Of a stretch of 64,000 bases of DNA, positions 8,507 to 29,145 are shown piece by piece. Numbering within the stretch: the first letter of the stretch is position 1; every line of letters starts with the position of its first letter. Both the position numbers and the translations under genes were made by a program. This DNA comes from Patescibacteria group bacterium. GTDB taxonomy: Bacteria > Patescibacteriota > JACPGU01. The notes below the pieces were generated by a model. That model ran no database searches and was not told the DNA's origin. It was given only the letters and a program-made list of their open reading frames with translations. Location: assembly GCA_041675145.1 (NCBI GenBank), contig JBAYUK010000002.1:152530-216529 (forward strand). Reading direction: 5' to 3'.

Positions 8507-8612
8507 TTCTCTAGGGCACCCGACCGAGAGGGGTCAGGAGCCCTACTAGGCTACAGAAGCATTCTGAACTCTAGATAAGAAAAGTCACACATTTTAGGTG
8601 TGACTTTTCTGT
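8507..8612 (+). repeat. copy E of the island repeat family: 3' module only (tRNA-Gln trailer) plus intrinsic terminator
   Basis: ctagggcacccgaccgagaggggtcaggagccctactaggctacaga is near-identical to copies at 10317, 12378 and 28397; ends with hairpin gtcacacattttaggtgtgac + T-tract. Confidence 0.8.
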
Positions 8613-8884
8613 ATATTTAAAAAGAGACTTCATAAGAGTCTATATGGTAAGTAATGTTTTCAATTGCCATCAAGGCAGGTGAATGTTGTGGTAGTATTTG
8701 TAATAGTCTAATAAGTATGTTATAGTAACTGTATGAATAGAGCTATTCAAAACACTATGATGATGAAAATGACTAACCCATTAATGAGGGCTTGTTTTCT
8801 TGTCTAATTGTTTACATAGATAACCAAAGAAAACAGCCCTCTCACGGGGCTGTTTTTTAATTATAATAGTAAATAACTAAAAGT

Positions 8885-9664
8885 ATGAATATAACAATCA
8901 TAAACGATTGCCGGGATGCAAACGCTGTGGGCAGGCAGACAGCGAGAGTGGCTACACTTACAGGTTTCCCAGTCTCCTTTATTGGTGTTAAAAGTGATCT
9001 TGAGGCTGCAGGAAACCTTATTGATATTATAGATGCTCTCGAGGAAAGTACCGGAGCTATTCTCGTCAATGTTGCCCCCAGGAATGGCAAAGCCAAGAAG
9101 TGGAAAAATGGAACACCTTTTGGCTACTTTCGATACAAGAATATTCTTGTACTAACGAGTATAGACGGTTTTACGCTTTCTCTAGTAAAAAAGCTTAAGC
9201 TCATTGAGTCTATAACTATTCTTGATATACCAAAGGCACTGGATCAAATGATCTCAGGAGGGGTATTATCGAAGGAAATCAAGGATTTAGTTACGAGGAC
9301 GCAATTTAGAAGTTACGACTTCCTACCTCGTGTAGCTACCTACTTACTTAGTGGTAAAAACTTAGAAGGTGCTAAAATGAGCATAAAAGATGTACCGGAT
9401 GCACCAGCAGTAGTGTGGTGGGTTGATAACTTTGGAAATTGCAAAACGACTTTTCTAAATGAGGATAGAAAAGATGGTATTAGTTTTTACTCCAAATTTA
9501 GTAATCTGCCCTATTTTGAGAGATTAAAGGATGTTCCTGATGATACTGCTTCAATAGTTTCAGGAAGTTCTGGGATTGGAAAAAAACGTTTTCTAGAAAT
9601 TATTATTCAGGGCAAAAGTGCAGCAAATGAGTTTAATGTCTTCACTGGAGATGCCGTTGCCTAG
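8885..9664 (+). CDS. DUF62-family SAM hydroxide adenosyltransferase-like protein (chlorinase/fluorinase superfamily)
   Basis: N-terminus ITIINDCRD..VG..ARV, VNVAPRNGK (compare VDPGVG), and C-terminal WWVDNFGNCKTTF (compare IDRFGNLITN). Confidence 0.55.
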   Translation: MNITIINDCRDANAVGRQTARVATLTGFPVSFIGVKSDLEAAGNLIDIIDALEESTGAILVNVAPRNGKAKKWKNGTPFGYFRYKNILVLTSIDGFTLSLVKKLKLIESITILDIPKALDQMISGGVLSKEIKDLVTRTQFRSYDFLPRVATYLLSGKNLEGAKMSIKDVPDAPAVVWWVDNFGNCKTTFLNEDRKDGISFYSKFSNLPYFERLKDVPDDTASIVSGSSGIGKKRFLEIIIQGKSAANEFNVFTGDAVA

Positions 9665-9687
9665 ATACATATCCTCAAAATCTTATA

Positions 9688-10074
9688 GTGTTACAGACAG
9701 GAAGATTCAATTATAATAATACTAAATATTCTACTATGACAAATGTAAAATTAATTAAGTTTAGATTCAAGCCAGGTGCAAAGCGCATTTGGATTAATTG
9801 GTCTGAAGAGCTCAAGCATAGAAATAGCGAGGTAGTAGAGACTCTCAAGAATGAAGGTGTTATTTCTGAATCTTGTTTTATTTCGGAAGATGGTGAGTCA
9901 ATATACTATTTTATGGAAGCAGAAGACTTCGAAAAAACTCGTAAGGCTGTTGCGAATAGCATCTACTTGATAGATGCTGATCATAAGAAAGCTCGGGAGA
10001 GTAGCTTAGAATTTGTCGCAAAACTAGAATGTCTTTTTCATTTTGAGAACCGAACATCACACTTCAATTCTTAA
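9688..10074 (+). CDS. hypothetical protein
   Basis: ORF only; no recognisable motif. Confidence 0.4.
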   Translation: MLQTGRFNYNNTKYSTMTNVKLIKFRFKPGAKRIWINWSEELKHRNSEVVETLKNEGVISESCFISEDGESIYYFMEAEDFEKTRKAVANSIYLIDADHKKARESSLEFVAKLECLFHFENRTSHFNS

Positions 10075-10212
10075 ATTCTGATTTTCTAGCACTAGCTTGC
10101 CCCTCAAGTGCATCAATAGTTCTCGCTTCTCAATAACTGGTCCATCTCGTAGGGCGTACTTCGCGTAGTCTCGAATATTTATATCGGGACCTATTTTCTT
10201 CTTTTCACTGTC
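10060..10212 (-). pseudogene. C-terminal remnant (about 50 codons) of a second large serine recombinase
   Basis: Minus-strand translation ...EKKKIGPDINIRDYAKYALRDGPVIEKRELLMHLRGKLVLENQNLRIEV* aligns with the intact recombinase C-terminus ...EKQKKVDVSEIDIKNYAKYILKEGMLAEKRELLKNFKNKIILEDEILRIS*; DNA similarity is also visible against 19290-19390. Confidence 0.65.
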
Positions 10213-10214
10213 TC

Positions 10215-10440
10215 ATCTACCCTAGACCGAGACCCCTCAGATTACATAACTTACAACCTACTGGAAAAGACCTCAACTGACCCAATACTGGAGGTTCTTG
10301 ACCGAAGTAGCCAGTTGTCTAGGGCACCCGAGAGCCTGTCCTGAGCCTGTCGAAGGAAGACCGGTCAGGAGCCCTACTAGGCTACAGAATCTCTGTAAAG
10401 TCTAGATAAGAAAAACCACCTCATATGGGTGGTTTTTCTT
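10215..10440 (+). repeat. copy A of the island repeat family (5' module + 3' module with expanded variable loop + terminator)
   Basis: ctagaccgagacccctcagattacataacttacaacctactggaaaag..ctcaactgaccc..tggaggttct.gaccga ... agggcaccc..ggtcaggagccctactaggctacagaa ... aaagtctagataagaaa + hairpin ccacctcatatgggtgg + TTTTT. Confidence 0.85.
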
Positions 10441-10466
10441 TATAATTGTGGGTGGTTTTGGTATAG

Positions 10467-11088
10467 TATGCTTATTACACAGAAGATACTTAGTAGTAAT
10501 ACTGAAAACAAAATGATAACTAATTACGTTTCAGATATTGATAGTTGGGAGAAGTGGGAAAAAGAGTATCGTTATGGTCTTATCCTAGTCATGCCGCCAG
10601 AACCCACCTTCTCGATGGTTAATTCTCTTCGCGCAAAATATGATCCGAAATCCCAAGCTAGTTGTGATGCACATATTAGTTTATCAGTTCCAATCCCAAG
10701 ACCTGTAACTGAAGAAGATTGGGAAGAGTTACAAAACATCGCTTCAAAAATTGAACCATTTGAGATTAATTATGGTAAGCCCAAGGACTATCCGCCCTAT
10801 CCAGGAGTCGCTTATCCATTAGAAGACCAAACAGAATTAAATTCGGTGCGAGAGAAGATTGAAGCCGCTTCGTTATTTTCAGATGCTAAACCGAGAAAGT
10901 TTCCATTTAACCCACATATGACAATTGCAGAGTTTATCTCGAAAGAAGAAACCGTAGAGTTGTTAAAAGAACTAGAAAATAAAACGACTGCTGGCAGTTT
11001 TATGTGTGATGGGCTGGTTTATATTGTTCCTGATAAGAATATGTATTTTAATGTAGTGCGTAAACTTAACTTTGGGCAGAAAAAATAA
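10467..11088 (+). CDS. 2H phosphoesterase superfamily protein (LigT-like 2'-5' RNA ligase / cyclic phosphodiesterase)
   Basis: Two H-x-S/T-x motifs, HISLSV and HMTIAEF. The ORF-track start at 10429 lies inside the copy-A terminator hairpin, so the true start is downstream (10467 or 10513). Confidence 0.65.
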
Positions 11089-11204
11089 AGTAATTTGACA
11101 GAGAGATTAGTATTACCATGTAGAGCTTGAAGCTAAAGATGTGATTAGTTTAGTCAAAATAGTTTAGTGTTCCCCACCTTTTATCAATATTAAATTTAAT
11201 AGTA

Positions 11205-12269
11205 GTGAGTAGCTATATAGGAAAAGAATATATTGAAGATACGGAAAAAATAGAAGTACTTATTAAGTATAGTATTAGAGTTCCCGATAAGTTTGGGGAC
11301 TTCAATATGGATCTAAACAGTAGGCTGAAAGTGAGGGAAGGAAATGGAGTTCTATATATTAATATACATAGGAGTATATCGAAAAAACTATTTTCTGTTT
11401 TAGTAGAAGACTTTGCTAGTTCAGCAAAAGGCGATATCAGAGCAGCAGAGCGTTTAGTGCACCTGAGTGGTTATATAATTGGCTATATTCGCCCAACACT
11501 TCCTATTGTAGTTGATGAAATATATAAGAGAAAATATCTAGGGGGTCATATATTAACGCATTCTGTTTCAATGGTAGACGTATTTGATGTTAGTGTGTTG
11601 GATAGCCAAGGAAATGGGGTTGTCCTTGCATGGTGGCCTTCCACTATATCTTCTTTTCCTCCCTCTAGTGTTCTAGCCGCTGTATCAGATGCTGTATATA
11701 TTAGAGATTATATTGAGGTAATGGCAAGCTATTTTAACTACAATATAGATGATGGCATTAGAAGATCTATTACGTCTCTAGAAAATTACTTCATTCACTA
11801 CGGAGTAAAACCTAGTATAAAAAAAGGAAGATATCTTTATATAAAAAGGTTATTTCGCATGAAGGAAAGAAAGTTTAAAAGACTAGTTAACTATTTAGTT
11901 AGCGATAAGTATTACTCTATTAAAGAAAGTCATTTGAGAATACTAAGAAATAATATTTTATATATTTATCATGTCAGAAATAAAATAGTTCATGACAAGA
12001 CTCGAATATCGGCCTCTGATTCGTATATTGCAAAAAAGGCTATAGGTACGTTGTCTTATATTTATCAAAATACTATTACTTCGCAGAATCACTTAGAATA
12101 CATAAAGTCACTCACTCAGCAATTTATCGGTATAGAAGAAATATATTTTGGGATCAATTTAGATGAAATCGAACATCACAGAAGTAATACCAAGAAAGAA
12201 TCAAATTCTGATATAGATGATTTTATGTTTAGCGGCCTGGAGATAACTAAAGCTCAAAAAAAGTTTTAG
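11205..12269 (+). CDS. hypothetical AT-rich protein with C-terminal HEPN-like Rx4H motif (possible abortive-infection-type RNase)
   Basis: GTG start; YHVRNKIVHDKT (R-x4-H); strongly AT-biased codon usage compared with flanking genes. Confidence 0.4.
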   Translation: MSSYIGKEYIEDTEKIEVLIKYSIRVPDKFGDFNMDLNSRLKVREGNGVLYINIHRSISKKLFSVLVEDFASSAKGDIRAAERLVHLSGYIIGYIRPTLPIVVDEIYKRKYLGGHILTHSVSMVDVFDVSVLDSQGNGVVLAWWPSTISSFPPSSVLAAVSDAVYIRDYIEVMASYFNYNIDDGIRRSITSLENYFIHYGVKPSIKKGRYLYIKRLFRMKERKFKRLVNYLVSDKYYSIKESHLRILRNNILYIYHVRNKIVHDKTRISASDSYIAKKAIGTLSYIYQNTITSQNHLEYIKSLTQQFIGIEEIYFGINLDEIEHHRSNTKKESNSDIDDFMFSGLEITKAQKKF

Positions 12270-12279
12270 TAGCTTTATT

Positions 12280-12479
12280 TCACTCTAGACCGAGACCCCT
12301 CAGATTACATAACTTACAACCTACCGGAAAAGCCCTCAACTGACCCGATTGTGGAGGTTCTAGACCGAACTAGCCAGTTGTATAGGGCACCCGATCGAGA
12401 CTGGTCAGGAGCCCTACAAGGTTAGAGGATTAATGTAAAGTCTTGGTAGAAATAATCACCCAAAAAGGTGATTATTTCT
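12280..12479 (+). repeat. copy B of the island repeat family
   Basis: Same 5' and 3' modules as copy A; variable loop cccgatcgagactggtcagg; own terminator aatcacccaaaaaggtgatt + T-tract. Confidence 0.85.
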
Positions 12480-12511
12480 ATGAAAAGTGTTCTGTGTTAG
12501 AATAATCTCAT

Positions 12512-12826
12512 ATGAAAAACGAAGACAAAGAATCTGTTATAGAATGGCTTCAGGTTTTTGGATGGGGAGTATTAGCTCTTTCCCTATTTCTATTCATTGG
12601 ATTTATATATGCGTTAAGAGTATATCCTGGCACAGCATCAGTGTTCTATCTTATCTTTCCTATTGCAGGTTTTGCCTGCTTGATAGACTACGCAGTATTG
12701 TTTCTTATTCGAACCCAATATAGCCAAGGAAGAAAATACTTATTAATTCCAGGCATTTTATTTGTGCTTATAACACTCGTCCTTATTTTGGCATTTGCTG
12801 CAGGGCCACTTATTGGGCTTTTATAG
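12512..12826 (+). CDS. small integral membrane protein
   Basis: 104 aa with three hydrophobic helices; overlapping alternative-frame ORF 12487-12723 rejected. Confidence 0.4.
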   Translation: MKNEDKESVIEWLQVFGWGVLALSLFLFIGFIYALRVYPGTASVFYLIFPIAGFACLIDYAVLFLIRTQYSQGRKYLLIPGILFVLITLVLILAFAAGPLIGLL

Positions 12827-12873
12827 AATTTAGATTGGGCTTATTTTCATTTGACCATGTAGGGTCAGTGACA

Positions 12874-12910
12874 CATAAAACACGCCAAAAGGCGTGTTTT
12901 ATGATATAAT
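12874..12910 (+). promoter_or_regulatory. conserved hairpin (cataaaacacgc-N5-gcgtgttttatg) fused to extended -10 TGaTATAAT
   Basis: Perfect 12-bp stem; the same stem sequence recurs at 17920, 29145 and 29974. Confidence 0.6.
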
Positions 12911-12930
12911 AAATACAATATGCTCGTAAT

Positions 12931-13677: not shown

Positions 13678-13694
13678 GCTCACATAAAATCAAA

Positions 13695-13913: not shown

Positions 13914-13957
13914 CTATAGTTATTACATCGGCTGAGAAATAACGCTCAAGCTCTAAC

Positions 13958-15730
13958 CTAAGTTATTCTAACCTTACTTGCTTCATATAGTTCTCTAAAT
14001 AGGCCGCCATTCCTCTTTAGTTTTTCAAATGGACCGTTCTCAATAATGCATCCATCGCTGAGTACTATAATGGTATCGAATGAGTCGAGCATGGAATATT
14101 TGTGTGTTACATAGAGTAGGGTAAGGTCTGGGTATGCCTTCATGATATTTCCAACGACTTCTCGTTCAGTCTTTGGATCAAGGCTGGCAGTTGCCTCGTC
14201 GAGGATCAAGACGGGGTGATTTTGGAAAAGGGCACGTGCTATACCAATACGCTGTCGCTCTCCGCCAGAGATATTTAACGAACCTTCAAATAGCTGTTCG
14301 TCTACTCCCCTTGGTAATTGATTGATAAATTCCCCAAGACAGCAGATTCTTAGTAGCTCGCTTAGTTCTCCATCACTAGGGGACTCTGAGCTTGACGAGA
14401 TGTTTTCTCGTATGGTACCTCGGAATAGTTGCACTTCCTGCGGAACTATGCTAAAAACATCAACAATATCTTTTCCGTTTAGTTTGCGATACTCAATGTT
14501 ATTGATCGTAACCGATCCTTGGTAATCGGTAATTGCTTTTAATATTACATCGAGTAGGGTTGATTTTCCGCCTCCAGTATGTCCGACAATAGCAATCTTC
14601 TCCTTTTCTTTTATTGTGAAACTAGCGTTGGTTAGATTTTCTCGCTCGTCACGAGAGACTCCTACATTAGACAGAGCAAGCTTTTTAAAACGATCCTTGA
14701 GTAGACCTGTTTTTACTAGAGATTGTCCTTCAAGGGGTATAGCAATCTCTTCGTTGAAGCGCTGGAGTGCCGTCGCTCTTTCAGAGAAACTTTCCAAGTA
14801 GCCCACCAGGGTGCCTATCTGCCCCGATAGTTTACCAACGAAGGCAAGAACAACGGTCATAGTTCCGATGGTGAAGTTTCCGTTCATAACATTCGTCACA
14901 CAGAAAATAAATACCAGGATCATAGTCACTTGTTCTAGTTGTCCATTGTTGTACCATTTGCGTAAGCTGCGTCGAATTACTTCGGTACGTTTTTTATATG
15001 ATTCCTCTATTTTTTCTGCGATATCGGCTTGTTGTTTGGCAAATAAGTTAAGATAGAAGACCGTCTTGAAGTTGTTCAAAAATTCGACAATTCCACCCGT
15101 TAGAGCTTCTTCTTTCTTTGACCATTCTATTCTGGCCTTTTCTTCTCTTCTTCCAAATACGATAACATTTACTATCGAGAGTCCTGAGGTTATAAGGAAA
15201 ATAACCAAAATAAGTGGCTTAATAAATGCAGTAGACATCAGAATACCTATCACTGATCCAACAGAGCTTAAGTAGCGATGGAGGATATCGTCAGTCAGAC
15301 GATATATGCTGTCATATGCAGAATCAATAATCTTTAAAAACACCCCGCGATTTTTTAGTTTAAAGAAATCGATCGGAGCATTTTCGAATAATCGGATCGC
15401 GTCGTTTCTGAAGTCTCGGCCAACTTTGGCTGCGATATTGAGACATTTGGATACTGTAATAATGCTTATTGCGGGAGAGATAAACAAGAACACTACATAT
15501 ATTACCAATAGTGTGTAGAGTTCTCTGGAACTGAAATCTCCGGTAGCTAACGCATCAATAATAGCACCGAAAATAATTGGAGTAGCTATTCCAATACCAA
15601 CGAGAATAGTTTGAATAAAAAACCAAAACCAATAGCTCGGATAGCGATTTATATATCGAATGGTGAGCCTGAGGGCGTATAGGTCGTTTTTTGTCATGAT
15701 TATTTGGATTGTATCATAAGATACCCCCAT
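13958..15730 (-). CDS. ABC exporter, fused permease/ATPase (MsbA-like)
   Basis: Walker A GHTGGGKST, signature LSGGERQRIGIARAL, Walker B ILDEATASLD; six N-terminal TM helices. Confidence 0.9.
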   Translation of the reverse strand: MGVSYDTIQIIMTKNDLYALRLTIRYINRYPSYWFWFFIQTILVGIGIATPIIFGAIIDALATGDFSSRELYTLLVIYVVFLFISPAISIITVSKCLNIAAKVGRDFRNDAIRLFENAPIDFFKLKNRGVFLKIIDSAYDSIYRLTDDILHRYLSSVGSVIGILMSTAFIKPLILVIFLITSGLSIVNVIVFGRREEKARIEWSKKEEALTGGIVEFLNNFKTVFYLNLFAKQQADIAEKIEESYKKRTEVIRRSLRKWYNNGQLEQVTMILVFIFCVTNVMNGNFTIGTMTVVLAFVGKLSGQIGTLVGYLESFSERATALQRFNEEIAIPLEGQSLVKTGLLKDRFKKLALSNVGVSRDERENLTNASFTIKEKEKIAIVGHTGGGKSTLLDVILKAITDYQGSVTINNIEYRKLNGKDIVDVFSIVPQEVQLFRGTIRENISSSSESPSDGELSELLRICCLGEFINQLPRGVDEQLFEGSLNISGGERQRIGIARALFQNHPVLILDEATASLDPKTEREVVGNIMKAYPDLTLLYVTHKYSMLDSFDTIIVLSDGCIIENGPFEKLKRNGGLFRELYEASKVRIT

Positions 15731-15763
15731 TTTTAGTATCCTTTATGATATAATGCACACATT

Positions 15764-16840: not shown

Positions 16841-16907
16841 TTAACTATCAGGACAGTACCCGACCAATAATGGTCGGGATTGTTACATACACCAAGAGCT
16901 TCACACC

Positions 16908-17819: not shown

Positions 17820-17919
17820 CTAATTTTTAATAGACCGAGAACTGCCAGTTACTCCTGGCAGCAGACCGAAAGGTCTATTCCGCCAGGTTAGAAATCGTTC
17901 GAGCCCGAGACGGATCGAA

Positions 17920-17960
17920 CACATAAAACACGCTACAATTAGCGTGTTTTATGTTAAAAT
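17920..17960 (+). promoter_or_regulatory. conserved hairpin (acataaaacacgc-N8-gcgtgttttatgt) + extended -10 TGtTAAAAT; ATG of downstream gene 7 nt after the -10 (leaderless)
   Basis: Same stem as 12874, 29145 and 29974; the -10 ends at 17960 and the ATG is at 17967. Confidence 0.6.
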
Positions 17961-17966
17961 AGAATC

Positions 17967-18440
17967 ATGGAGCCATCAAAATCTCAAAGAAAATACGAAG
18001 AACTTCAACGATCCTGTGCCAGGATAGAGGATCTCTATAAGGGTTTGATTATAAATAATGAAGGGCAGGACACTCTTCAATCACCAAAAGATATCTTACT
18101 GAATTTCTTTAGGGTTTGTTATGAGCTGAAAGAAGCTTTAAAAAGAGATCCTACTCTACCTATAGAATTTAAGGATGGGGTCGAGAAGTTTTGGAAAACT
18201 AATAGATATGCTGCGCTTAGCCTTGATGTTGCCAATCAGGAAAAACATATTACTCTTGGCAGTAATAATAAGTCAGGCCATAGGATTGGTAAGATTAATA
18301 CCCAGATACATTCATTATCACCCGACGGAAAGCCTGATCATACTAGAGTAACTATTGAGATAGATGGTGTGGCACAGGATGGTCTAGATCTGGCTAAGAA
18401 AGTTTTACTGGCTTGGAAGGAACTATATGAAAAGATATAG
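17967..18440 (+). CDS. hypothetical protein (first gene of a two-gene cassette)
   Basis: ORF; the stop overlaps the next start. Confidence 0.5.
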   Translation: MEPSKSQRKYEELQRSCARIEDLYKGLIINNEGQDTLQSPKDILLNFFRVCYELKEALKRDPTLPIEFKDGVEKFWKTNRYAALSLDVANQEKHITLGSNNKSGHRIGKINTQIHSLSPDGKPDHTRVTIEIDGVAQDGLDLAKKVLLAWKELYEKI

Positions 18441-20567: not shown

Positions 20568-20908
20568 CCAGTAGTCTAGGCTTATTATTCGTTGCTAATA
20601 AAAGCTCTTCGCAAGGCTCCAGATGTAAGCTAAGATACGTGGACTTTTGCCGTATTCGTGGTAAAATGACTTAACAATTGAGTAGTGCCTAACCCCGAAG
20701 TTTTCGCTTCGGATATGGCGCAAAACCCCCAACCAAGATACTGAACCCCGTGTTCAGCAACTCTTGGTTGGGTCATATCGGGAAACTGATATGGAGTCGC
20801 AAGACTCGGCTGGCGCGGGGCTTAGTGTATCTAAGCGTTGTTGCCAGCTACTTATTATAGAGAGCTGGATTTTTTTATTATTAACGCACAATACTAATAA
20901 CTACATAT

Positions 20909-21370
20909 ATGAGCAATACAACAAACGATAAAGAGTTTAAGGGGTATAACGGCACGCTAATACTCACCAATACAGGAATTATCATAAAGCGTGGCACGAA
21001 GGGATTCCTGCTCGGTGGCTTCCAGATGAGAGGAGACAAAACGATACCGTATAGCAGTATTGTGGCAGTACAGTTTAAGAAGGCTGGGTTATCTGCCGGT
21101 TATATCCAGTTTACTCTCAAGGGAGGATCAGAGGCAAAAGGCGGTTTGCTCCAGTCAACCAGAGATGAGAACAGTATTAATTTCCACTCCAATAGAAACA
21201 AAGAGTTTATTGAAGCAAAGGAGCTTATCGAACAGCGCATTGGTTCAGAAGGATCATCTGCTAGACCAAGCGAACTCGATGAGCTTACAAAACTCGCTAC
21301 TCTGAAAGACAAAGGCATTATTAATCAGAAAGAGTTTGACGCTAAGAAAAAACAGCTCCTTGGCTTATAA
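20909..21370 (+). CDS. PH-like (DUF4429-type) domain protein with C-terminal SHOCT domain
   Basis: C-terminal LKDKGIINQKEFDAKKKQLL matches the SHOCT pattern. Confidence 0.55.
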   Translation: MSNTTNDKEFKGYNGTLILTNTGIIIKRGTKGFLLGGFQMRGDKTIPYSSIVAVQFKKAGLSAGYIQFTLKGGSEAKGGLLQSTRDENSINFHSNRNKEFIEAKELIEQRIGSEGSSARPSELDELTKLATLKDKGIINQKEFDAKKKQLLGL

Positions 21371-21392
21371 TAATCATTAGTAACTCACCACA

Positions 21393-22055
21393 ATGGCATT
21401 TATCAATGGCTTCTTTTCGTTCCTATTCTTTATTTCGTTTATTTTATTGATTGTGGGGCTAATTGCTCCTAAGAAAGTAAGTAGGCTTTTGAAGAAAGAT
21501 TGGGACCGCAAGATGATCGCAAAAACTATCGGTCTGGTCTCGTTGGCATCCTTCGTTATTGCAGTGGCTACTACGCCCGCTGTTCCGGTATCTCCAAAAG
21601 CTACTAAAACGTCTACAGTTACTGAAACCACTGAGCAGGTTCAGGCAATAAATGTAGAGGAGCCACAAGAAATTGTGTCAGAGGAAGTTAAAGAAGCGGC
21701 CAAGGATTCAGCAGTAAGTGAAACTAAGCCAGCAACATCATCGCCGACTCCTCAAAAGACCACCAACTCGAGTCCTGCTCAAACGACCACTTCTCCTACG
21801 CCAGCGACATCGAGCCCTACACCAACTCCACAACCAGCACCAACAACCCCCGCGCCTACTCAACCAGCACCACAACCAGCACCAGTTCCATCTGGTCACA
21901 CGTTTTATACCAGTTCGCACTATAGCGCAAAATTATATTACTGTGATACAGATGAAGGGTGGAGAGGCCTTTCACCAAGTTATCTCAAATCTTTTCCTAG
22001 CGCCGAAGCATTATTGAAAGTATACCCAAGAACACTTCACGAGCCGTGTAAATAA
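21393..22055 (+). CDS. secreted/anchored Pro-Thr-rich protein with conserved Cys-containing C-terminal domain (paralog of the next gene)
   Basis: N-terminal TM, PT-rich linker, C-terminal HTFYTSSHYSAKLYYCDTDEGWRGLSPSYLKSFPSAEALLKVYPRTLHEPCK. Confidence 0.6.
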   Translation: MAFINGFFSFLFFISFILLIVGLIAPKKVSRLLKKDWDRKMIAKTIGLVSLASFVIAVATTPAVPVSPKATKTSTVTETTEQVQAINVEEPQEIVSEEVKEAAKDSAVSETKPATSSPTPQKTTNSSPAQTTTSPTPATSSPTPTPQPAPTTPAPTQPAPQPAPVPSGHTFYTSSHYSAKLYYCDTDEGWRGLSPSYLKSFPSAEALLKVYPRTLHEPCK

Positions 22056-22058
22056 AGT

Positions 22059-23189
22059 ATGGAAAGTAGCGCTTTAACCCTTTTATTCTTCTTACTGTTT
22101 ATAGCTTCAGTTGTATTACTGATTGCTGGATTAATATGGCCGCCGATTCTCAAGCGACTTATTAAGTCTGTTCCCACTAGAAAAGCAATAGCCTTATTCT
22201 TCTCGGGGCTAATAGTGACTTCTTTCATTGGAGTAGCGGTCTTCGTTCCGCATAGTAATAGTAGAATAACTGCTGATACTGTTTCAGAGGAAAAAACAAA
22301 CATAGAGCAAGAAGCTCAAGGCGTACCTGTTAGCACCCAAGACGGTGTCGGTGCTGGCACTATTGAAGAAGTTACTGCCGAGAAAACGGTGCGGTCACTT
22401 CCTGATCAAGCTTCTAGTAGCACAAAAACAGCGACACCGACGCCCGCGCCGAGCCAACCAACTTCAGCACCCGCCAAGCCCGCGCCGAGCCAAGTTCCAG
22501 TAGTTGCACCACCTGCACCCACACCAGCCACGACCACGTACTTCTCAGTCGTTTCCGTAACTGACGGAGATACTTTTAAAGTATCTATAGATGGGAAGAC
22601 TGATACTATACGTATTATCGGTGTAGATACTCCAGAAACTGTTGATCCAAGAAAACCCGTGCAATGTTTTGGGGTAGAAGCTTCAAGCAGAGCCAAGGCT
22701 TTACTTACTGGAAAGAAAGTAAGATTGGAGTCGGATAGTGTCTCGGGTGATCGAGACAAGTATAACCGCTTGCTTCGTTATGTGTGGCTCGAGGATGGTA
22801 CTTTTTTTAACGAGACCATGATATCCGAAGGATACGCCTTCGAATACACTTATCAAAGTCAGGCATATGTGTACCAGTCTGAATTCAAGAAAGCTGAACA
22901 GAACGCAAAGAATTCAAAGCTAGGACTTTGGGCGGATAATGCCTGTAATCAGACAACGCAATCTGCCGTAGTGCCACCTGTAGTTTCGCCTCCCGCAACA
23001 GCTCAGCCCGTACCTACTACAACATCTTCGCATGTATTTTATACGAGCTCATATCATACTGCTCAATATTACTATTGCGATACTGACAACGGATGGAAGG
23101 GTCTTTCGCCGAGTTATCTTAAATCATTCCCAAGTGCTGAGGCGTTACTGAAGGTATACTCGAGAACACTTCACGAACCCTGTAAGTAG
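22059..23189 (+). CDS. secreted thermonuclease (staphylococcal nuclease fold) with the same C-terminal domain
   Basis: SNase core DGDTFKV...IRIIGVDTPE...RLLRYVW...GYA; C-terminal HVFYTSSYHTAQYYYCDTDNGWKGLSPSYLKSFPSAEALLKVYSRTLHEPCK. Confidence 0.8.
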   Translation: MESSALTLLFFLLFIASVVLLIAGLIWPPILKRLIKSVPTRKAIALFFSGLIVTSFIGVAVFVPHSNSRITADTVSEEKTNIEQEAQGVPVSTQDGVGAGTIEEVTAEKTVRSLPDQASSSTKTATPTPAPSQPTSAPAKPAPSQVPVVAPPAPTPATTTYFSVVSVTDGDTFKVSIDGKTDTIRIIGVDTPETVDPRKPVQCFGVEASSRAKALLTGKKVRLESDSVSGDRDKYNRLLRYVWLEDGTFFNETMISEGYAFEYTYQSQAYVYQSEFKKAEQNAKNSKLGLWADNACNQTTQSAVVPPVVSPPATAQPVPTTTSSHVFYTSSYHTAQYYYCDTDNGWKGLSPSYLKSFPSAEALLKVYSRTLHEPCK

Positions 23190-23636
23190 CTATTCTGATA
23201 TGCCCTTTTCCTCTTCAGCCATCTCCTTATGAAGCTTTAGTGCCCATTCTGCGATCGTCTCCGGTGGCGTTTCATTGATGATTATGGAGTGTACTGGAAC
23301 GAATGACTCAACATCTTTTGTAGGTACTTTGGGTGTATACTCCGGGTCTCTGCTCTTAAGCTGAAATACGATAGCCTGCATATTGCCTTCTTTTATCTTT
23401 TGCGTTAAGGCAGACTTAGCAAGATCGTTTAATGCAGCTCTTCCGAGTTTACGCGCCTTGGTTACTTCATCTGCAAGATCCATATCTTCTTCGATCCAGC
23501 GATAGAATGTTGCACGGGAGACGCCTGCCTTTTTGCATACTATGGATATATTGTCGAGTTCACTTAACAAGGCAAGAATCTCTTTCTTGTTTTTAGCAAT
23601 TCTTTTTTGGTCAGTTTTAGCTTTCTTGTCTTCCAT
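23190..23636 (-). CDS. HTH protein resembling phage terminase small subunit
   Basis: CKKAGVSRATFYRWIEED helix-turn-helix near the N-terminus; located next to two DNA methyltransferases as in phage packaging modules. Confidence 0.45.
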   Translation of the reverse strand: MEDKKAKTDQKRIAKNKKEILALLSELDNISIVCKKAGVSRATFYRWIEEDMDLADEVTKARKLGRAALNDLAKSALTQKIKEGNMQAIVFQLKSRDPEYTPKVPTKDVESFVPVHSIIINETPPETIAEWALKLHKEMAEEEKGISE

Positions 23637-24381
23637 GAGCTTTTTTACCCGTTAACTTTTCCCACCGTTGAACGATCGTAGCGCAGTACTCCAAATCCTG
23701 CTCGACCATAACACACTTCCGCTTCGTATGCTCGCACGCAACTATTGTGGTTCCTGATCCACCGAATGGGTCGTACACCACATCTCCCACCTCAGTGCAG
23801 TTTAGAATGAGCTTACGAATGAGGCCGACTGGCTTCATGGTGGGGTGGAGCTTGCTCTGTTGTGGCTTGGGCGCAAACAACACCGACTTATCTTTACTAT
23901 GCTTGAAGTCATGCGTACCATACCAGCCATAGAGGATTAGTTCGTGTTGCGGGAGATAGTCAAGTCGACCAATGACAGGTTTGTCTTTGACCCAAATAAG
24001 CAACTGCGCTACTTTGATCTTCATATCTACGCAGGCTTGGCGCAGGGCAAAGACCATCTTGTCTGAATTGAAGATGTAGATACTATTCTTCTTCGTGAGA
24101 TACGGCAGCGCGGGACCAAGCCACCCTTGCGTAAAGGTCGCGTACTGCGCATCTGACATATGCCCGTCATTTTGGATATCTTTATCTTTGGATACTTTTT
24201 GTAAATCTCGCTTGCTGGCGACATAGTCGATACCGTACGGCGGATCCGTGATAATAGCGTTGATCTTGCCATCTTTCAGGATAGCCTTCAGATCTAAGGT
24301 ACTGGCATCCCCACAGACTAAGGTGTGGTCACCGAGCTGGATAATATCCCCGGACTTAATTGAGTTTGATGGCTGTGTCAT
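23617..24381 (-). CDS. DNA (N6-adenine/N4-cytosine) methyltransferase, beta class
   Basis: Motif IV IITDPPYGIDY before motif I VYDPFGGSGTT; start placed at MTQPS (24381) with GGGAGAA upstream rather than the longer ORF from 24438. Confidence 0.85.
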   Translation of the reverse strand: MTQPSNSIKSGDIIQLGDHTLVCGDASTLDLKAILKDGKINAIITDPPYGIDYVASKRDLQKVSKDKDIQNDGHMSDAQYATFTQGWLGPALPYLTKKNSIYIFNSDKMVFALRQACVDMKIKVAQLLIWVKDKPVIGRLDYLPQHELILYGWYGTHDFKHSKDKSVLFAPKPQQSKLHPTMKPVGLIRKLILNCTEVGDVVYDPFGGSGTTIVACEHTKRKCVMVEQDLEYCATIVQRWEKLTGKKAHGRQES

Positions 24382-25630
24382 TGGTAAGGTTCTCCCAGCG
24401 GTTAATAATAAGTTGGCAAAAAACAGGACTTTGCTCAATCAGATACGCGACACGCTTTAGTTGTTCGCAGGCGAGCAAAGTTGAGCCACTCCCACCGAAT
24501 AGATCGAGTACCGTATCGCCGATCTTGGTACAGCGCATCAGCGGTCGCTCGTGTAAAGTGAGTGGCTTCTGGGTGGGGTGATTGTAGTCGTCACTCGCAT
24601 CTCGCTTAACCAACCAAATGTCGATCAGGTCGGCGACATCATCAAGAGTGGCATTGCCAATGCCGACTTCAGTATTTAAGATCTCCGCAAACTTGGTATG
24701 TTTATCCGACAAGTACGGTTTTCCCACCGTGCCATAGACACACGGTTCATACAACTTCGAGAAGGCTATCTGCGGAGTCGGATTAATACCGTTCTTAATC
24801 CACAAACACGTCCGTTGGTATTTGATTCCCAGCTCCTCGTATACCGATTGCACCATCCCGACGTAGCGCTCATCACACCACCAGAATAGATGCGTATCTT
24901 TTTGCGCAACACCCAGGGCGTTACCTAAAGTCTGCTTCGTAAAGAGTCGGAACGCATCGTCGGACAAGGAATCGTTAACTGCGCCACCATAGTTAGCTTT
25001 GCCGCCAATCCCTTTGTTATAGTCGAGGCTAATATTGTATGGGCTGTCGCAATACACCATATGTACTCGTGTTTCGCCAACTAACTTTTGTACAGCTTCC
25101 ATGTCGGTGCTATCTCCGCACAGTAACCGGTGATTGCCCAGCTGAAACAGGTCACCGGACTGGATGTCTGTAGTTAGCGCTTTCTCGATCTCTTCCTCCT
25201 CATTGAAGCTGTCGTCTTCCAATTCCAGAACATCGTCCCAGATACTGGAAAGATCGGTATCGTCAAAGCCGATATCGAGTAAGAATTCGGTATCGAATTC
25301 CTTGAGGAGATCAAAATTCCACGAACCCGTATTGCGGTTGGAGCGCAGTAAATATTCGTCGAATTCTTTTTGATCAAGTAATCGACTCGGTACTCGCACA
25401 TCGATTAGTTCTTCGCCACGACCCAGTTCACGCAGGATAAAGAGTCGTTGGTGACCAGCAATCACTGTGTTATCTAAGTTGATCGCTGGAATTTCAACGA
25501 GGTCAAACTTCGTAATACTTTTTGTCAGATCCTTTTTCTGCTGCGCGCTCAAGGTACGCGGGTTCTTGGAATAGGGCACCAAATCTGAGACTTTACGTTT
25601 TTCTGTGTGCCACTGAATAGATTTTTTCAT
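24356..25630 (-). CDS. ParB-N-like domain fused to DNA methyltransferase
   Basis: N-terminal ParB-like nuclease domain (...IAGHQRL...), CDSPYNISLDY (DPPY-type) and LDLFGGSGSTL; start at MKKSIQW (25630) preceded by AGGAGA SD; the longer ORF start at 25675 lies inside an upstream terminator hairpin. Confidence 0.85.
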   Translation of the reverse strand: MKKSIQWHTEKRKVSDLVPYSKNPRTLSAQQKKDLTKSITKFDLVEIPAINLDNTVIAGHQRLFILRELGRGEELIDVRVPSRLLDQKEFDEYLLRSNRNTGSWNFDLLKEFDTEFLLDIGFDDTDLSSIWDDVLELEDDSFNEEEEIEKALTTDIQSGDLFQLGNHRLLCGDSTDMEAVQKLVGETRVHMVYCDSPYNISLDYNKGIGGKANYGGAVNDSLSDDAFRLFTKQTLGNALGVAQKDTHLFWWCDERYVGMVQSVYEELGIKYQRTCLWIKNGINPTPQIAFSKLYEPCVYGTVGKPYLSDKHTKFAEILNTEVGIGNATLDDVADLIDIWLVKRDASDDYNHPTQKPLTLHERPLMRCTKIGDTVLDLFGGSGSTLLACEQLKRVAYLIEQSPVFCQLIINRWENLTNDTAIKLN

Positions 25631-25654
25631 AATATATTCTCCTAAATTTACCAA

Positions 25655-25730
25655 TAAAAAATGCCCACTCTGCAAAATAACAAACCAGGAAGATTTACTC
25701 CCTAAATTTATTTTTCTGCAAAGTGGGCAC
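25655..25730 (-). terminator. large-loop intrinsic terminator for the 117-aa gene
   Basis: Inverted arms atgcccactctgcaaaata / ttttctgcaaagtgggcac followed on the minus strand by TTTTTTATT. Confidence 0.5.
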
Positions 25731-25805
25731 GACCGAGGCGAAGCCTCTCTGGTGTCTTACGACACCTTCTATCACCCGAAGGTGAAATACGTGATACTCA
25801 CTGTG

Positions 25806-26159
25806 TTATCTACTGCTCGATTGTAAAAATGCTGTCAACTCGTTAGGGCGATGTGCCTTCAGAAATTCTATCGCATCTTTTCCAAGAAATACCGGCGCGC
25901 CACCCTCCGGCATACGAATACGAAGTTTTTTACCTTGTTTCTTTGCCAAAGCATGGGCACGTTCAATCTCAGGATTATGGAAAATAACTCGAACCGTATC
26001 TTTACTACCCTCGATCTGCTTGATGTCCGTACTATACGCACGCTGTTCTGTCTTGGTATTGATCGATCGCTCAATAACGCGACCAACAGATTTTGGTTTG
26101 CGCGGCAGCTGAACATTCAGCTCGAGGTCATAAATGTATACATCGATAAACTCTTCCAT
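25806..26159 (-). CDS. hypothetical protein, divergent from the repressor gene
   Basis: ORF only. Confidence 0.45.
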   Translation of the reverse strand: MEEFIDVYIYDLELNVQLPRKPKSVGRVIERSINTKTEQRAYSTDIKQIEGSKDTVRVIFHNPEIERAHALAKKQGKKLRIRMPEGGAPVFLGKDAIEFLKAHRPNELTAFLQSSSR

Positions 26160-26267
26160 ATCCGTATACTAGCACGAAGGGAAAGTGGGTGTCAAGCGTG
26201 AAACATATGTTACGGCTCTTTACGAAAAAGTTATTGAAAGTTCAAAAAAGTATGTTATTATTCAAGT

Positions 26268-26918
26268 ATGAATCCTATCCAAAATGAATTGATGACCCTA
26301 GCCAAAGACCACGATCTCGGTAAAATGAGTTATCGTCAGATAGCAAAACTGATCGGAAAAGAAGGCAGGCCTCAGCTAGTGAAGCATCATCTTGAACAAC
26401 TTGATAGGCAGGGATTAATGCAGGTCAATCTGAAAGAAAAGGTAATTCGCCTGGTCAAGAAAGGGTTCAATAAAACTAAAACAGAAAATTCGTTTTACTC
26501 GTTACCAATTGTTGGTTCGGCGAATTGTGGTCCAGCTACCATATTCGCTGACGAGAGCGTCCAGGGATATTTGAGAGTTTCAGCAAATGTGTTACCTCGA
26601 AAAAAACAGGACCTGTATGTGCTCGTAGCAGATGGCGGATCAATGGATCGGGCTTCTCTTAAAAAAGGAGGTCCTACTATTGAGGATGGCGATTTCGTGG
26701 TTGTAGATAGCTCAAAAGTCAGTCCAAAAGATGGTGAAGTTGTGGTGGCGGTTATTGATCGCATGGCGACTATTAAGCGCTACAAAAAAGATCCAAAGAA
26801 TCACCGCATTATCCTTCAGCCCGAATCAACAGAGAACTATTTCCCAATCATTGTGCAGCAAGGTGATAACTTTCAAGTCAGCGGAACAGTCATCGACATC
26901 ATCAAGAAAGCAAAGTAA
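26268..26918 (+). CDS. LexA/CI-like repressor (winged HTH + S24 peptidase domain)
   Basis: N-terminal HTH YRQIAKLIGK...; C-terminal VADGGSMD (Ser nucleophile) and ...ATIKRY (Lys). Confidence 0.75.
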   Translation: MNPIQNELMTLAKDHDLGKMSYRQIAKLIGKEGRPQLVKHHLEQLDRQGLMQVNLKEKVIRLVKKGFNKTKTENSFYSLPIVGSANCGPATIFADESVQGYLRVSANVLPRKKQDLYVLVADGGSMDRASLKKGGPTIEDGDFVVVDSSKVSPKDGEVVVAVIDRMATIKRYKKDPKNHRIILQPESTENYFPIIVQQGDNFQVSGTVIDIIKKAK

Positions 26919-26966
26919 TTTTGCCTATGGTCGATATTATTAGTAGTGATTAGAAAGGTGGTATTC

Positions 26967-27107
26967 ATGACTAACACTAAAAAGGTGAAGTTGCCAAAAA
27001 GTGCTGTGACCGGACGTATCGTAACATCGGCATATGCAAAGGCACATCCAAACACAACCGTTTTCCAAACAGTTGTGAAGAAGCAAGCATCAGGTAAGAA
27101 AAAATAA
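26967..27107 (+). CDS. small basic protein (46 aa), hypothetical
   Basis: AAAGGTGG SD-like sequence 7 nt upstream of ATG; not in the ORF track because it is under 60 aa. Confidence 0.3.
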   Translation: MTNTKKVKLPKSAVTGRIVTSAYAKAHPNTTVFQTVVKKQASGKKK

Positions 27108-27198
27108 ACAGGCTGAATGGGAAAAGTTATCGAGTAGTACGCGTTTGAGAAGATTGTTTCTTTATCTTCAATTACGGCCGAAAGGTATGCCTGCCCAT

Positions 27199-27228
27199 CA
27201 GAAATCGATCTGCAAGGATCGATTTCTG
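27199..27228 (+). promoter_or_regulatory. perfect 12-bp inverted repeat CAGAAATCGATC-N6-GATCGATTTCTG, candidate operator
   Basis: 35 nt upstream of the 27263 gene start, no T-tract, contains two GATC sites. Confidence 0.4.
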
Positions 27229-27262
27229 ATTCAAATCATATCTACCCTATAAATATTAACTT

Positions 27263-28210
27263 ATGGCAAACAAGAAGTTTTTAGAAGAATATCCACTATA
27301 CAAGAAGTATGAAACCGCATGGAATCAGGAAGAGCACGACTATTCATGGATGACCCTCGGTAAGCTTCCCGAACCAGCGATCCATATGTATTGCACTGTT
27401 TGTGATTCTGATCAAACATTCAATATGCGTAACGAGTATTATGACGATAGCTATATGGGGCTTGAGAGGAATAATACAGAATTTCAAAAGTATGCCGAGG
27501 AGGTGAAGTTAGTATATTGTGAGAAAATTCCTGCAGCAGGAAAGGTGCTCCGGAGTGACTATTTGTGTTCGGCTTGCGGTAAAGGGAGGATGATATTCCT
27601 TATTTATTTCTTTAGGGAAAAGATTGGTTCAAGATCTGTTCTATGCATGATGAAGGTTGGCCAAACTCCTCCTTGGAGCATAGTAGTAAATAAAGAGATG
27701 GAGAAGCTTTTGGGTAGTAACGCAGAGCACTATAAGAAAGGGTTGATTTGTGAATCACAGTCTTACGGTATTGGTGCATACGCCTATTTCAGAAGAATCA
27801 CCGAGACTATTATTGATGAACTATTGGACTCTATTTCGGATTTGTTAGAAGGTAAAGAAAAGGAGCTATATGCTGATGCGCTTGCAAAAACGAAAGCCAC
27901 TCGAGTGACTCAAGATAAGATAGATTTAGTTAAACACCTGTTGCCAGTTTCTTTACGACCTGACGGTCTTAATCCGCTTGATATTCTTCATTCTGCGCTG
28001 AGTCAAGGGCTACACGTAGAAGACGATGAGGTATGTCTAGAACAAGCAGAGGCCATAAAGAAGGTATTGGTCTTTCTAGTCAGCCAGATTATTAAGAAGA
28101 AAGATGAAGCCAAGGAATTTACTAAAGGCATGAGAGAGATACTAAACAAGAAGTCGAAACCTACCGTTGTTGAGGATGGGAAAGAAAAAAAGGCAGATGA
28201 ATCAGAATAG
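27263..28210 (+). CDS. hypothetical protein with N-terminal Cys4 zinc-ribbon-like motif
   Basis: CTVCDSD...CSACGKG; lysine-rich C-terminus. Confidence 0.5.
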   Translation: MANKKFLEEYPLYKKYETAWNQEEHDYSWMTLGKLPEPAIHMYCTVCDSDQTFNMRNEYYDDSYMGLERNNTEFQKYAEEVKLVYCEKIPAAGKVLRSDYLCSACGKGRMIFLIYFFREKIGSRSVLCMMKVGQTPPWSIVVNKEMEKLLGSNAEHYKKGLICESQSYGIGAYAYFRRITETIIDELLDSISDLLEGKEKELYADALAKTKATRVTQDKIDLVKHLLPVSLRPDGLNPLDILHSALSQGLHVEDDEVCLEQAEAIKKVLVFLVSQIIKKKDEAKEFTKGMREILNKKSKPTVVEDGKEKKADESE

Positions 28211-28291
28211 TTATTATGTGGCTATAATAAGCTATTTAAGTCAATAATTACTTACTCTCAAAAATGAGTCAGAGGTGTCTCATTTGTCTCA

Positions 28292-28492
28292 TTTACCCTA
28301 GACCGAGACCCCTCAGATTACATAACTTAAAACCTACTGGAAAAGCCCTCAACTGACCCGATTATGGAGGTTATAGACCGAGACTGCCAGCTTTCCAGGG
28401 CACCCGACCGAGAGGGGTCAGGAGCCCTACTAGGCTACAGAGTTTCTCTAAAGTCTAGATAAGAAAAACCATCCGAAAGGATGGTTTTTCTT
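28292..28492 (+). repeat. copy C of the island repeat family
   Basis: Full 5' and 3' modules; 3' module identical to copy E over 45 nt; terminator ccatccgaaaggatgg + T-tract. Confidence 0.85.
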
Positions 28493-28517
28493 ATGGCATT
28501 CAGGGCTATATGGGCAA

Positions 28518-28982
28518 TTAAGCTATCAACATTCTGTAGTGATCTTCCCAAAGCACATAGTCTTTGTCTCTACCTTCTCGTGGTAGGTCATTGATTTCAC
28601 CTTTAGTTAGGAATATAAGCTCGTCGTGATCTGGACTGAGCTGTATCTCCGGCTCTTTATCTAGTTCTATAGTAAAAGCAAACTTTGTTTTATGCTTATT
28701 GGTCTCGATATTATGGAATTCAAATATGCCGAGCGGTTGAAGCTTTTCAGGTAAAACTACGATACCTGCTTCTTCAAATAGCTCTCGTACAGCTGCATGC
28801 GTCAGCTCCTCAGATTCATCGACTGAACCACCAGGTATCTCGAGTATTCCAGAACATGAGTCTGTAGCCGATCGTTTTAATAAAAGGAACCTGTCTTGCC
28901 ATTGCACTCGTATGCACGCACCGATGTTGTGACCAGCACTAATTGCTGATTCTAATTTTTCTTTAAAATTGTTACCCGACAT
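28518..28982 (-). CDS. NUDIX hydrolase
   Basis: Nudix box GGSVDESEELTHAAVRELFEEAGI. Confidence 0.85.
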   Translation of the reverse strand: MSGNNFKEKLESAISAGHNIGACIRVQWQDRFLLLKRSATDSCSGILEIPGGSVDESEELTHAAVRELFEEAGIVVLPEKLQPLGIFEFHNIETNKHKTKFAFTIELDKEPEIQLSPDHDELIFLTKGEINDLPREGRDKDYVLWEDHYRMLIA

Positions 28983-29024
28983 ATAGATTTATTGTAAGTA
29001 TAGCTTGCACTATTATAGCACTAT

Positions 29025-29145
29025 TTTTGTATCACTCTATACCGAGATCCTTCAGATTGCGTAACTTACAACCTACCGGAAAAGCCTTCGACTGACCCGG
29101 TTGTGAAATTTCTGGAGCGAGGTAGCCCACCCGACCGTGAGGGGT
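29025..29145 (+). repeat. copy D of the island repeat family (divergent, 3' module truncated and fused to the hairpin/-10 element)
   Basis: taccgagatccttcagattgcgtaacttacaacctaccggaaaagccttcgactgacccggttgtg ... cccacccgaccgtgaggggttagtgcc. Confidence 0.7.

Follow-up and report, generated by a model that had tools for sequence, protein, structure and literature searches.

In a 64,000-nt stretch of the genome of a Patescibacteria group bacterium (assembly GCA_041675145.1, contig JBAYUK010000002.1, positions 152,530 to 216,529 of the forward strand; hereafter the window), a family of ~200-nt repeats partitions an accessory island that opens at the 3' end of a tRNA-Gln(CUG) gene. We consider it likely that these repeats are the attachment (att) junctions of a tandem array of integrative elements, moved by a family of large serine recombinases (LSRs) that targets tRNA genes in the Candidate Phyla Radiation (CPR). 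The layout is of a type already known from other systems, and a new family of RNA genes is improbable. A sequence-only reading of this DNA, which had correctly recognized that the repeats partition the island, had offered two explanations, a novel structured RNA family, placed in its headline, and boundary or att-type repeats left by serial integration beside tRNA-Gln. The recombinase family and the parallels in other genomes described below favor the second of these, and the first did not stand up to analysis.

All copies of the repeat lie on a single strand and inside 21 kb. In the following list, and throughout the text, the 5' module of the repeat is called the left arm (P) and the 3' module the right arm (P'); positions are those of the window.

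8436 to 8506, forward strand: tRNA-Gln(CUG), identified by ARAGORN and Rfam; its T-arm and the 3' strand of its acceptor stem are the proposed left half of the chromosomal site, attB.
8504 to 8612, forward strand: copy E, delimited by alignment, profile search and folding; the proposed attL, joining the tRNA side to the right arm. It contains the core CAG/TT, the motif GACC at +16, an imperfect palindrome (TAGGGCACCCGACC..GGTCAGGAGCCCTA), a second hairpin and a two-way terminator; a candidate recombinase site of ~41 bp spans 8485-8525.
10209 to 10445, forward strand: copy A, a full junction made of left arm, core, right arm and terminator.
12272 to 12484, forward strand: copy B, a full junction in which GACC is altered to GATC.
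17828 to 17960, forward strand: copy F, a divergent junction consisting of TAGACCGAGAACTGCCAG/TT, 15 nt, GACCGAAAGGTC and a terminator of the host style described below; the proposed attL of the element that carries an intact recombinase, resulting from integration into a resident junction.
28285 to 28497, forward strand: copy C, a full junction in which GACC is intact; the proposed attR of that 10.5-kb element and the left boundary of a NUDIX cassette.
29024 to 29190, forward strand: copy D, consisting of the left arm, a short hairpin and a host-style terminator; either a distal attR (left arm plus chromosomal side) or a deleted junction.

Five of these copies were grouped by a repeat finder; they align over 268 columns and are 82-92% identical in sequence. 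They are the five same-strand copies that the sequence-only reading had delimited (E at 8507-8612, A at 10215-10440, B at 12280-12479, C at 28292-28492 and D at 29025-29145), on which profile, alignment and pattern searches agree; its count missed the sixth, divergent copy F. An nhmmer profile built from A, B and C and run against the whole window returned these five and no others, with E-values of 6e-74 for C, 3e-72 for B, 5e-71 for A, 5e-25 for D and 5e-23 for E, and each of two diagnostic patterns gave four matches, with none expected from shuffled sequences.

The copies are not all built alike. Copy E consists of the right arm only, as had been claimed, and its likeness to A, B and C opens at CAG, the last 3 nt of tRNA-Gln(CUG). 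Copies A, B and C carry both arms. Copy D carries the left arm; 12 nt (AGTTGTCTAGGG) are missing from this copy, which closes with a terminator from a different family. This distribution, with a right arm alone beside the tRNA, both arms within the array and a left arm joined to another tail at the far end, fits att junctions. Within the left arm, the first 75 nt are unstructured and conserved at 82-92%, and their left edge is discrete in each of the four copies that have them; three direct GACCGAGA motifs occur here, at spacings of 75 and 30 nt.

A modular build with partial copies would also be found in a non-autonomous dispersed repeat (of the miniature inverted-repeat transposable element (MITE), BOX or repetitive extragenic palindrome (REP) type) that transposes and happens to cluster here. 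The discrete left edge agrees with such an origin, as do a 6-bp inverted match between the repeat ends (CTAGAC/GUCUAG) and the recurrence of the GACCGAGA motif, which has 11 matches where 3.2 are expected. Nevertheless, we hold this origin to be very unlikely: the copies are confined to one strand of 21 kb, and the profile found none in the other 43 kb of the window. No target-site duplication, real terminal inverted repeat or transposase accompanies them, and the half copies are complementary rather than randomly truncated. Exact-pattern scans of public collections likewise gave no copy (for TAACTTANAACCTACNGGAAAAG, no match in GTDB genomes, none in IMG/VR and a single chance match in coding sequence in JGI metagenomes), and a blastn search with copy B against phages and plasmids returned no match.

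The island contains two recombinase features, both on the reverse strand and of the same family.

19239 to 20567, reverse strand: intact LSR of 442 aa with the Pfam domains Resolvase, Recombinase and Zn_ribbon_recom; the candidate enzyme for the array.
10075 to 10212, reverse strand: C-terminal LSR remnant of 46 aa, convergent with tRNA-Gln and matching the intact LSR by BLASTP (E 1e-10).

The remnant aligns with residues 393-437 of the intact LSR at 42% identity and also matches the C-termini of about 40 family members. It ends within about 5 nt of the 5' edge of copy A, in agreement with the earlier observation that this edge is the point at which a serine-recombinase gene is truncated. No N-terminal piece of a recombinase was found in the window, and a split gene with its N-terminal half elsewhere was also rejected, since no such half turned up. 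Between tRNA-Gln, at its 3' end, and the stop codon of the remnant there are 1,569 nt, and between copy F and the stop codon of the intact LSR 1,391 nt, with the recombinase in both cases on the opposite strand; the latter is a typical distance between the recombinase and the tRNA in this family. The window therefore repeats the family layout twice, once as tRNA-Gln, 1,569 nt and remnant, and once as copy F, 1,391 nt and intact LSR. Upstream of the intact LSR by 119 nt, and divergent from it, is a full-length LOOT RNA (Rfam RF03000, 88.7 bits, E 1.7e-15) at 20686-20807 on the forward strand; it was considered as a component of the system and set aside, being absent from 11 other loci of the LSR family.

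The family layout was established by scanning species-representative genomes and IMG/VR for relatives of the LSR, which gave 58 loci (L007-L066) at 48-73% identity, spread over many CPR lineages. Around these loci, no tRNA gene was present in 247 kb of upstream sequence, as compared to 61 in 270 kb downstream. In every one of the 40 loci that have a downstream tRNA, the nearest one is convergent with the recombinase, at 29-5366 nt from its stop codon. The associated tRNAs include those for Ser, Gln, Arg, Lys, Gly, Trp, Asn, Leu and Glu, and the nearest is tRNA-Gln(CUG) in five loci. This convergent downstream pattern indicates that the family belongs to tRNA-targeting integrative elements, which carry the recombinase at their tRNA-proximal end. 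The targeting of tRNA genes is usually the domain of tyrosine integrases. In one locus (L023), a group I intron (Rfam, 57.9 bits; 9487-9684, reverse strand) occupies the usual place of the tRNA downstream of the LSR, where ARAGORN found no tRNA; the target there may be an intron-containing tRNA.

The site itself also bears a family signature. In 30 of 39 loci, the motif GACC is present at 11-24 nt beyond the 3' end of the tRNA; a control window placed 80 nt further on contains it in 3 of 39. Its distance in the island is 16 nt, counted from CAG in copies E and C and from CCAG in F. Since GACC is conserved past tRNA ends, the left strand of the inner helix described in the sequence-only reading (CCCGACC) is better seen as the family-wide site motif. 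On the other side of the core, the full copies resemble the tRNA: the 22 nt that end at CAG (GGTTCTAGACCGAACTAGCCAG) match its T-arm and acceptor (GGTTCGAATCCAAGTCCCGCAG) in register at 11-12 positions, including GGTTC and CAG. From GGTTC to GACC there are 41 bp, centered on the tRNA 3' end, and a length of about 41 bp is usual for the sites of phiC31- and Bxb1-type enzymes. Beyond this site, conservation across genomes within recombinase subfamilies extends to right arms of 90-190 nt, which commonly close with a strong terminator, so that long conserved flanks are normal for elements of this LSR family.

Some of the sites in the window look damaged. The palindrome of copy A contains a 23-nt insertion (window 10331-10360) with a direct duplication, GAGCCTGTC..GAGCCTGTC, and has lost GACC, which probably renders this site inactive; the change of GACC to GATC in copy B points the same way. 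Copies E and C share an identical core of 45 nt (AGGGCACCC...GGCTACAGA; 8514-8558 in E and 28398-28442 in C) within flanks that differ at several positions, suggesting gene conversion or a recent recombination between the two sites. Copy A is a mosaic, similar to B on its left and to C on its right.

These last observations are what would be expected if the array had been built without any recombinase, by homologous (Campbell-type) recombination or gene conversion among circular DNAs or duplicated segments carrying the ~200-nt module, with the recombinases as bystanders, and 200 nt at 82-92% identity is indeed sufficient for RecA-type recombination. We regard this as unlikely, as it leaves unexplained why the similarity starts exactly at the tRNA 3' end, why the left arm mimics the T-arm in register, why the family-wide GACC motif stands at +16, and why unrelated repeats are laid out in the same way around related recombinases in other genomes.

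The clearest of these other cases, which matches the integrative array that we favor for the window, is an array in WWE3 UBA1397 (contig DBQJ01000019.1, on which loci L049 and L052 merge). Its features, in order, are as follows.

tRNA-Gly, which opens the array.
4979 to 5169: repeat R1, beginning at the last 6 nt of tRNA-Gly.
After R1, reverse strand: recombinase 1.
11048 to 11273: repeat R2.
13946 to 14187: repeat R3.
After R3, reverse strand: recombinase 2.

The two recombinase genes are 82% identical in DNA, and the three repeats, of ~190-240 nt, each carry three AAGTTCCGAC motifs. R2 and R3 extend about 50 nt further to the left than R1, and the additional part mimics the T-arm and acceptor of tRNA-Gly. 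The repeat sequence is unrelated to that of the window, and the architecture is the same.

In seven further loci, repeats of the tRNA end sit on the far side of the recombinase or near it:

L027: ~170 nt, tRNA-Gln(UUG).
L054: 73 nt, 97% identical.
L038: 42-58 nt in three copies, tRNA-Trp.
L047: 42 nt, tRNA-Gln(CUG).
L036: 37 nt.
L025: 20 nt.
L033: 17 nt.

In L025, L033 and L038, direct repeats of the tRNA 3' end flank the elements.

The module of the window has one distant homologue, in L014. There (8290-8900), a tRNA-Ser(UGA) ending in CGCAGTT is followed by 12 nt, a GACCGAGACAGGTCAG palindrome, a 133-aa open reading frame (ORF), TATAGACCGAGACGGGTCAG, 75 nt and GGTTCTAGACCGGAGAAC; the CGCAGTT end, the GACCGAGA..GGTCAG motif and the 75-nt spacing are shared with the window, and the arrangement looks like a one-gene cassette in another CPR genome. 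Two broader uses of the module were tried and rejected. It is not a general companion of the LSR family, being absent from the 58 loci apart from the weak match in L014, and the palindrome GACCG.GA..GGTY does not serve as a marker across genomes, as it occurs at about the chance rate outside this genome, again with the exception of L014.

The lineage of the window is thinly sampled, given that the best non-self match of its glutamyl-tRNA synthetase is only 64% identical; the other matches are from Parcubacteria-type CPR. In the relative with the 64% match, a plain terminator follows directly after tRNA-Gln and the neighboring genes are different, which argues that the right arm is not an ancestral trailer of this tRNA. 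The other two tRNAs of the window have plain trailers as well. Judged from sequence comparison, the plain terminator of the relative is consistent with an insertion in the window.

We also examined the proposal that the copies are small RNA (sRNA) genes or structured 3'-untranslated-region RNAs, each giving a ~200-nt regulatory transcript that ends at its own terminator. Multi-copy sRNA families exist, and many sRNAs are of about this size and end in an intrinsic terminator. Whole copies fold better than shuffled sequences (z-scores of -4.7 and -5.9), with the signal coming from the 3' half, where the terminator and the palindrome supply most of the folding energy; the 98-nt 5' module reaches a consensus folding energy of just -4.3 kcal/mol over four copies. 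The sequence-only reading had based its RNA family on compensatory changes. The four terminator stems that it quoted are correct and have folding energies of -18.5 to -22.7 kcal/mol, and in a comparison of E, A, B and C, seven terminator pairs change on both sides, as does one of the seven pairs of the second hairpin. In the central hairpin (TAGGGCACCCGACC...GGTCAGGAGCCCTA), whose helices it had described as retained, none of the 12 predicted pairs is changed on both sides; two or three have lost their pairing or differ on a single side, the one-sided changes being mostly compatible with G-U pairing. For the helices outside the terminator, these results come from 4-5 sequences and have low statistical power. 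The terminators, at -17 to -23 kcal/mol, have an A tract before the stem and a T tract after it, making them two-way intrinsic (Rho-independent) terminators. The reported covariation is thus real but confined to intrinsic terminators, which are under selection in any case.

The setting of the copies also weighs against RNA genes. Inspection of the sequence upstream of the copies revealed no conserved -35/-10 promoter; a stop codon precedes copy B by 3 nt, the remnant of an antisense gene borders copy A, and copy D lies in a divergent promoter region. Rfam gave nothing over the copies, either at gathering thresholds across the whole window or at E<=10 in 8.4-12.7 kb, except for chance terminator-like matches, and here the statement that they belong to no described RNA family was borne out. 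An origin as RNA genes further leaves unexplained the complementary half copies at the two ends, the abutment to the tRNA and the placement of the recombinases. Taken together, with a 5' module free of consensus structure, a hairpin free of covariation and no conserved promoter, we find it quite unlikely that the repeats are an RNA family.

Two other identities of the 5' module were tested and discarded. As a coding sequence (frame TLDRDPSDYITYNLPEKPSTDPIVEVLDR), it looks protein-like and is open in A, B and D; copy C has a stop in this only long open frame, and also an ATG, contrary to the claim that the module contains none. Variation over the three codon positions is 10/4/12, and the antisense frame varies least at third positions. 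A search of the window gave no paralogue, and one of 5.8 billion proteins gave no homologue. As a decayed tRNA, the module gave local alignment scores no better than those of shuffled sequences, the exception being the 22-nt T-arm mimic.

Returning to the array of integrative elements, the data can be assembled into the following scheme. A circular element would carry an attP whose left arm is the 5' module, with its last 22 nt imitating the T-arm and acceptor of the tRNA, whose center is a short core at CAG/TT, and whose right arm is the 3' module, with GACC at +16, the hairpins and the two-way terminator. We infer that the crossover falls at CAG/TT, because homology breaks there. The LSR would join attP to the 3' end of tRNA-Gln(CUG), leaving beside the tRNA an attL made of the right arm only, which would be copy E. 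Elements arriving later would enter a resident site, creating full left-plus-right junctions between neighbors (A, B, F and C), and at the far end the left arm would be joined to a host-style trailer, giving D as the distal attR. Copy F would combine a module-type left arm (TAGACCGAGAACTGCCAG) with the diverged right arm of the element that retains its recombinase, and the other end of this element would be copy C, so that F to C would delimit an intact element of 10.5 kb (17849-28390). Most other elements would have decayed and lost their recombinase, becoming remnants mobilizable in cis; the first retains 46 recombinase codons. The sites may still recombine. The two-way terminators would separate the convergent recombinase operon from the tRNA and the genes upstream, and this insulating role would account for the preservation of their stems by compensatory change.

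The host-style terminators that close F and D form a second repeat family, in which CATAAAACACGC, a loop and GCGTGTTTTATG are followed by a TATAAT-like box (12877-12900, 17925-17950, 29157-29180 and 29977-30000). They look like the house style of the host, as the terminator of tRNA-Glu (41820-41848) has the same design, and may mark chromosomal rather than element-borne DNA. Two further stretches contain them:

12853 to 12911, forward strand: hairpin with a terminator of the host style, which together match the right-hand part of D at 83% identity; this may be another degenerate junction.
29953 to 30011, forward strand: copy of the host-style terminator after a DUF5672 gene; it may mean that the array continues past D.

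Either of the two could be a degenerate junction.

Several observations weigh against this scheme. Neither an excised product nor a circular junction or an empty site was observed for this genome, and the other assemblies of the same species (Logan contigs) break inside the repeat, in the shared 45-mer; their ends were rejected as evidence for an empty site, this being where the k-mer graph breaks. The module was found in no other genome, save for the weak match in L014 (E 0.05). Four of the five segments between repeats lack an intact recombinase. Copy D does not offer a clean attR, with its 12-nt deletion and a hairpin resembling that of the right arm before the host-style terminator. LSR-mediated recombination is directional, with attP x attL disfavored, and accretion requires an attL that still works as an attB. 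The crossover, moreover, could lie at the center of the palindrome instead, given that E is similar to A to the left of the palindrome and identical to C for 45 nt from the palindrome on. The coincidence of the left edge with the recombinase truncation at copy A is not explained by the scheme either. Finally, LSR sites need ~40-50 bp; the conserved unit of ~200 nt far exceeds this, and the 75-nt start of the left arm, with its discrete edge, is unaccounted for.

The excess length of the module may have a function of its own. A doubtful but conceivable variant of the integrative scheme is that the left arm provides arm-type binding sites, or an element-encoded RNA, that governs directionality or turns attL into a landing pad. 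An arm-type role was considered in view of the three GACCGAGA motifs, the 75-nt spacing kept in L014 and the triple AAGTTCCGAC of WWE3. Were this the case, the tRNA-Gln locus would serve streamlined CPR genomes as an integron-like platform for cassette capture, operated by a serine recombinase in place of a tyrosine recombinase.

The genes between the repeats are heterogeneous. Between E and A are a 259-aa protein and a DUF6176 protein, between A and B a LigT-like 2'-5' RNA ligase and a 354-aa unknown protein, between B and F an ABC transporter and unknowns, and between C and D a NUDIX gene. The F-C segment is a phage-like block with the intact LSR, an SNase, a small-terminase-like helix-turn-helix (HTH) protein, two DNA methylases and an S24 repressor; the core of this block, formed by methylase, HTH protein and recombinase, is also present in other CPR loci and on one contig of IMG/VR. 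The description of this cargo as AT-rich applies to about 9-19 kb (GC content of 32-37% at 9-14 kb) and fails at 20-26 kb, which at 44-48% GC is the most GC-rich part of the region. Before copy C is a gene for a 315-aa protein (27263-28210, forward strand; PHROG 25239) with hundreds of CPR homologues, one of which has inserted into a type I restriction system (L067), where it separates the gene for the S subunit from that for the R subunit. The gene was tried as a marker of element ends and rejected, its homologues occurring in unrelated contexts without the module. Elsewhere in the window, a bacterial class A RNase P RNA (183.8 bits; 57675-58028, reverse strand) adjoins tRNA-Gln(UUG) at 58749-58819; both are ordinary housekeeping features.

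With this interpretation, a candidate new RNA family is replaced by a mechanism at the DNA level that can be tested. The analysis defines a widespread LSR family of CPR bacteria (Patescibacteria) that targets tRNA 3' ends, and provides its site signature, in which a T-arm and a core at the end of the tRNA are combined with GACC at about +16 to +21. This signature helps to delimit mobile elements and prophages in poorly annotated CPR genomes. It further shows how tiny, streamlined genomes gather accessory genes at a single hotspot, in this instance a LigT-like ligase, a NUDIX gene, an ABC transporter and a methylase-bearing prophage. To our knowledge, CPR organisms are at present without genetic tools; the att sites proposed here are candidates for CPR recombinase toolkits.

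Among known systems, integron attC arrays resemble the island in having short, mostly same-strand cassettes of one or a few genes and imperfectly palindromic sites with variable loops. However, the region has no IntI: Pfam and PHROGs searches of 5.8-31 kb yielded no tyrosine recombinase or integrase, and a hidden one among the unknown ORFs was rejected on the same grounds. The site ends lack the RYYYAAC/GTTRRRY (R''/R') consensus, the array starts at a tRNA, and its sites are alike in sequence (82-92% identity), while attC sites have a common structure rather than a common sequence. An integron was therefore rejected; the repeats are not of the MITE type either, and are not an Rfam family.

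The composite staphylococcal cassette chromosome (SCC) and SCCmec elements at orfX/rlmH are moved by the serine recombinases CcrAB and CcrC, insert serially at the 3' end of a housekeeping gene and are separated by direct repeats. Their repeats are of ~15-27 bp and their target codes for a protein, in contrast to the ~200-nt repeats and the tRNA found here. Integrative and conjugative elements (ICEs), integrative and mobilizable elements (IMEs) and cis-mobilizable elements (CIMEs) are known to accrete, as in ICESt1 and its CIMEs, by integration, decay that keeps the att sites and loses the recombinase, and new integration into a resident att (PMC5704250). The steps match those proposed above, as does the partitioning of the arrays by att repeats. 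The best-studied cases, however, involve tyrosine integrases and conjugation, whereas here we found an LSR and no genes for conjugation or mobilization, and the intact element is phage-like, with its two methylases, small-terminase-like HTH protein and S24 repressor.

The closest described system is that of the ssrA islands of Dehalococcoides, for which a comparison with SCC has already been drawn (PMC3146451). These are tandem islands downstream of the tmRNA gene, bounded by its 3' end or by repeats of it (McMurdie et al. 2011, PMC3146451). Their integration module lies on the reverse strand beside attL and begins with an LSR, insertion in or near the T-loop is marked by a motif that precedes each repeat and does not align with the RNA gene, and islands lacking a recombinase are read as cis-mobilizable elements gained by accretion (PMC3146451). 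The window shares the tandem islands, the reverse-strand LSR near attL, the upstream motif and the recombinase-less islands. A second small recombinase resembling DsiA or CcrA was not seen in it. The target is tRNA-Gln rather than tmRNA and the host a CPR bacterium; target identity amounts to ~3-5 nt and a degenerate T-arm mimic, as opposed to an exact repeat of 20 bp, and the junctions are of ~200 nt with built-in terminators, as opposed to ~85 bp. The array thus differs from its known kin by its CPR host, its tRNA target, its very short target identity and its terminator-bearing junction of ~200 nt.

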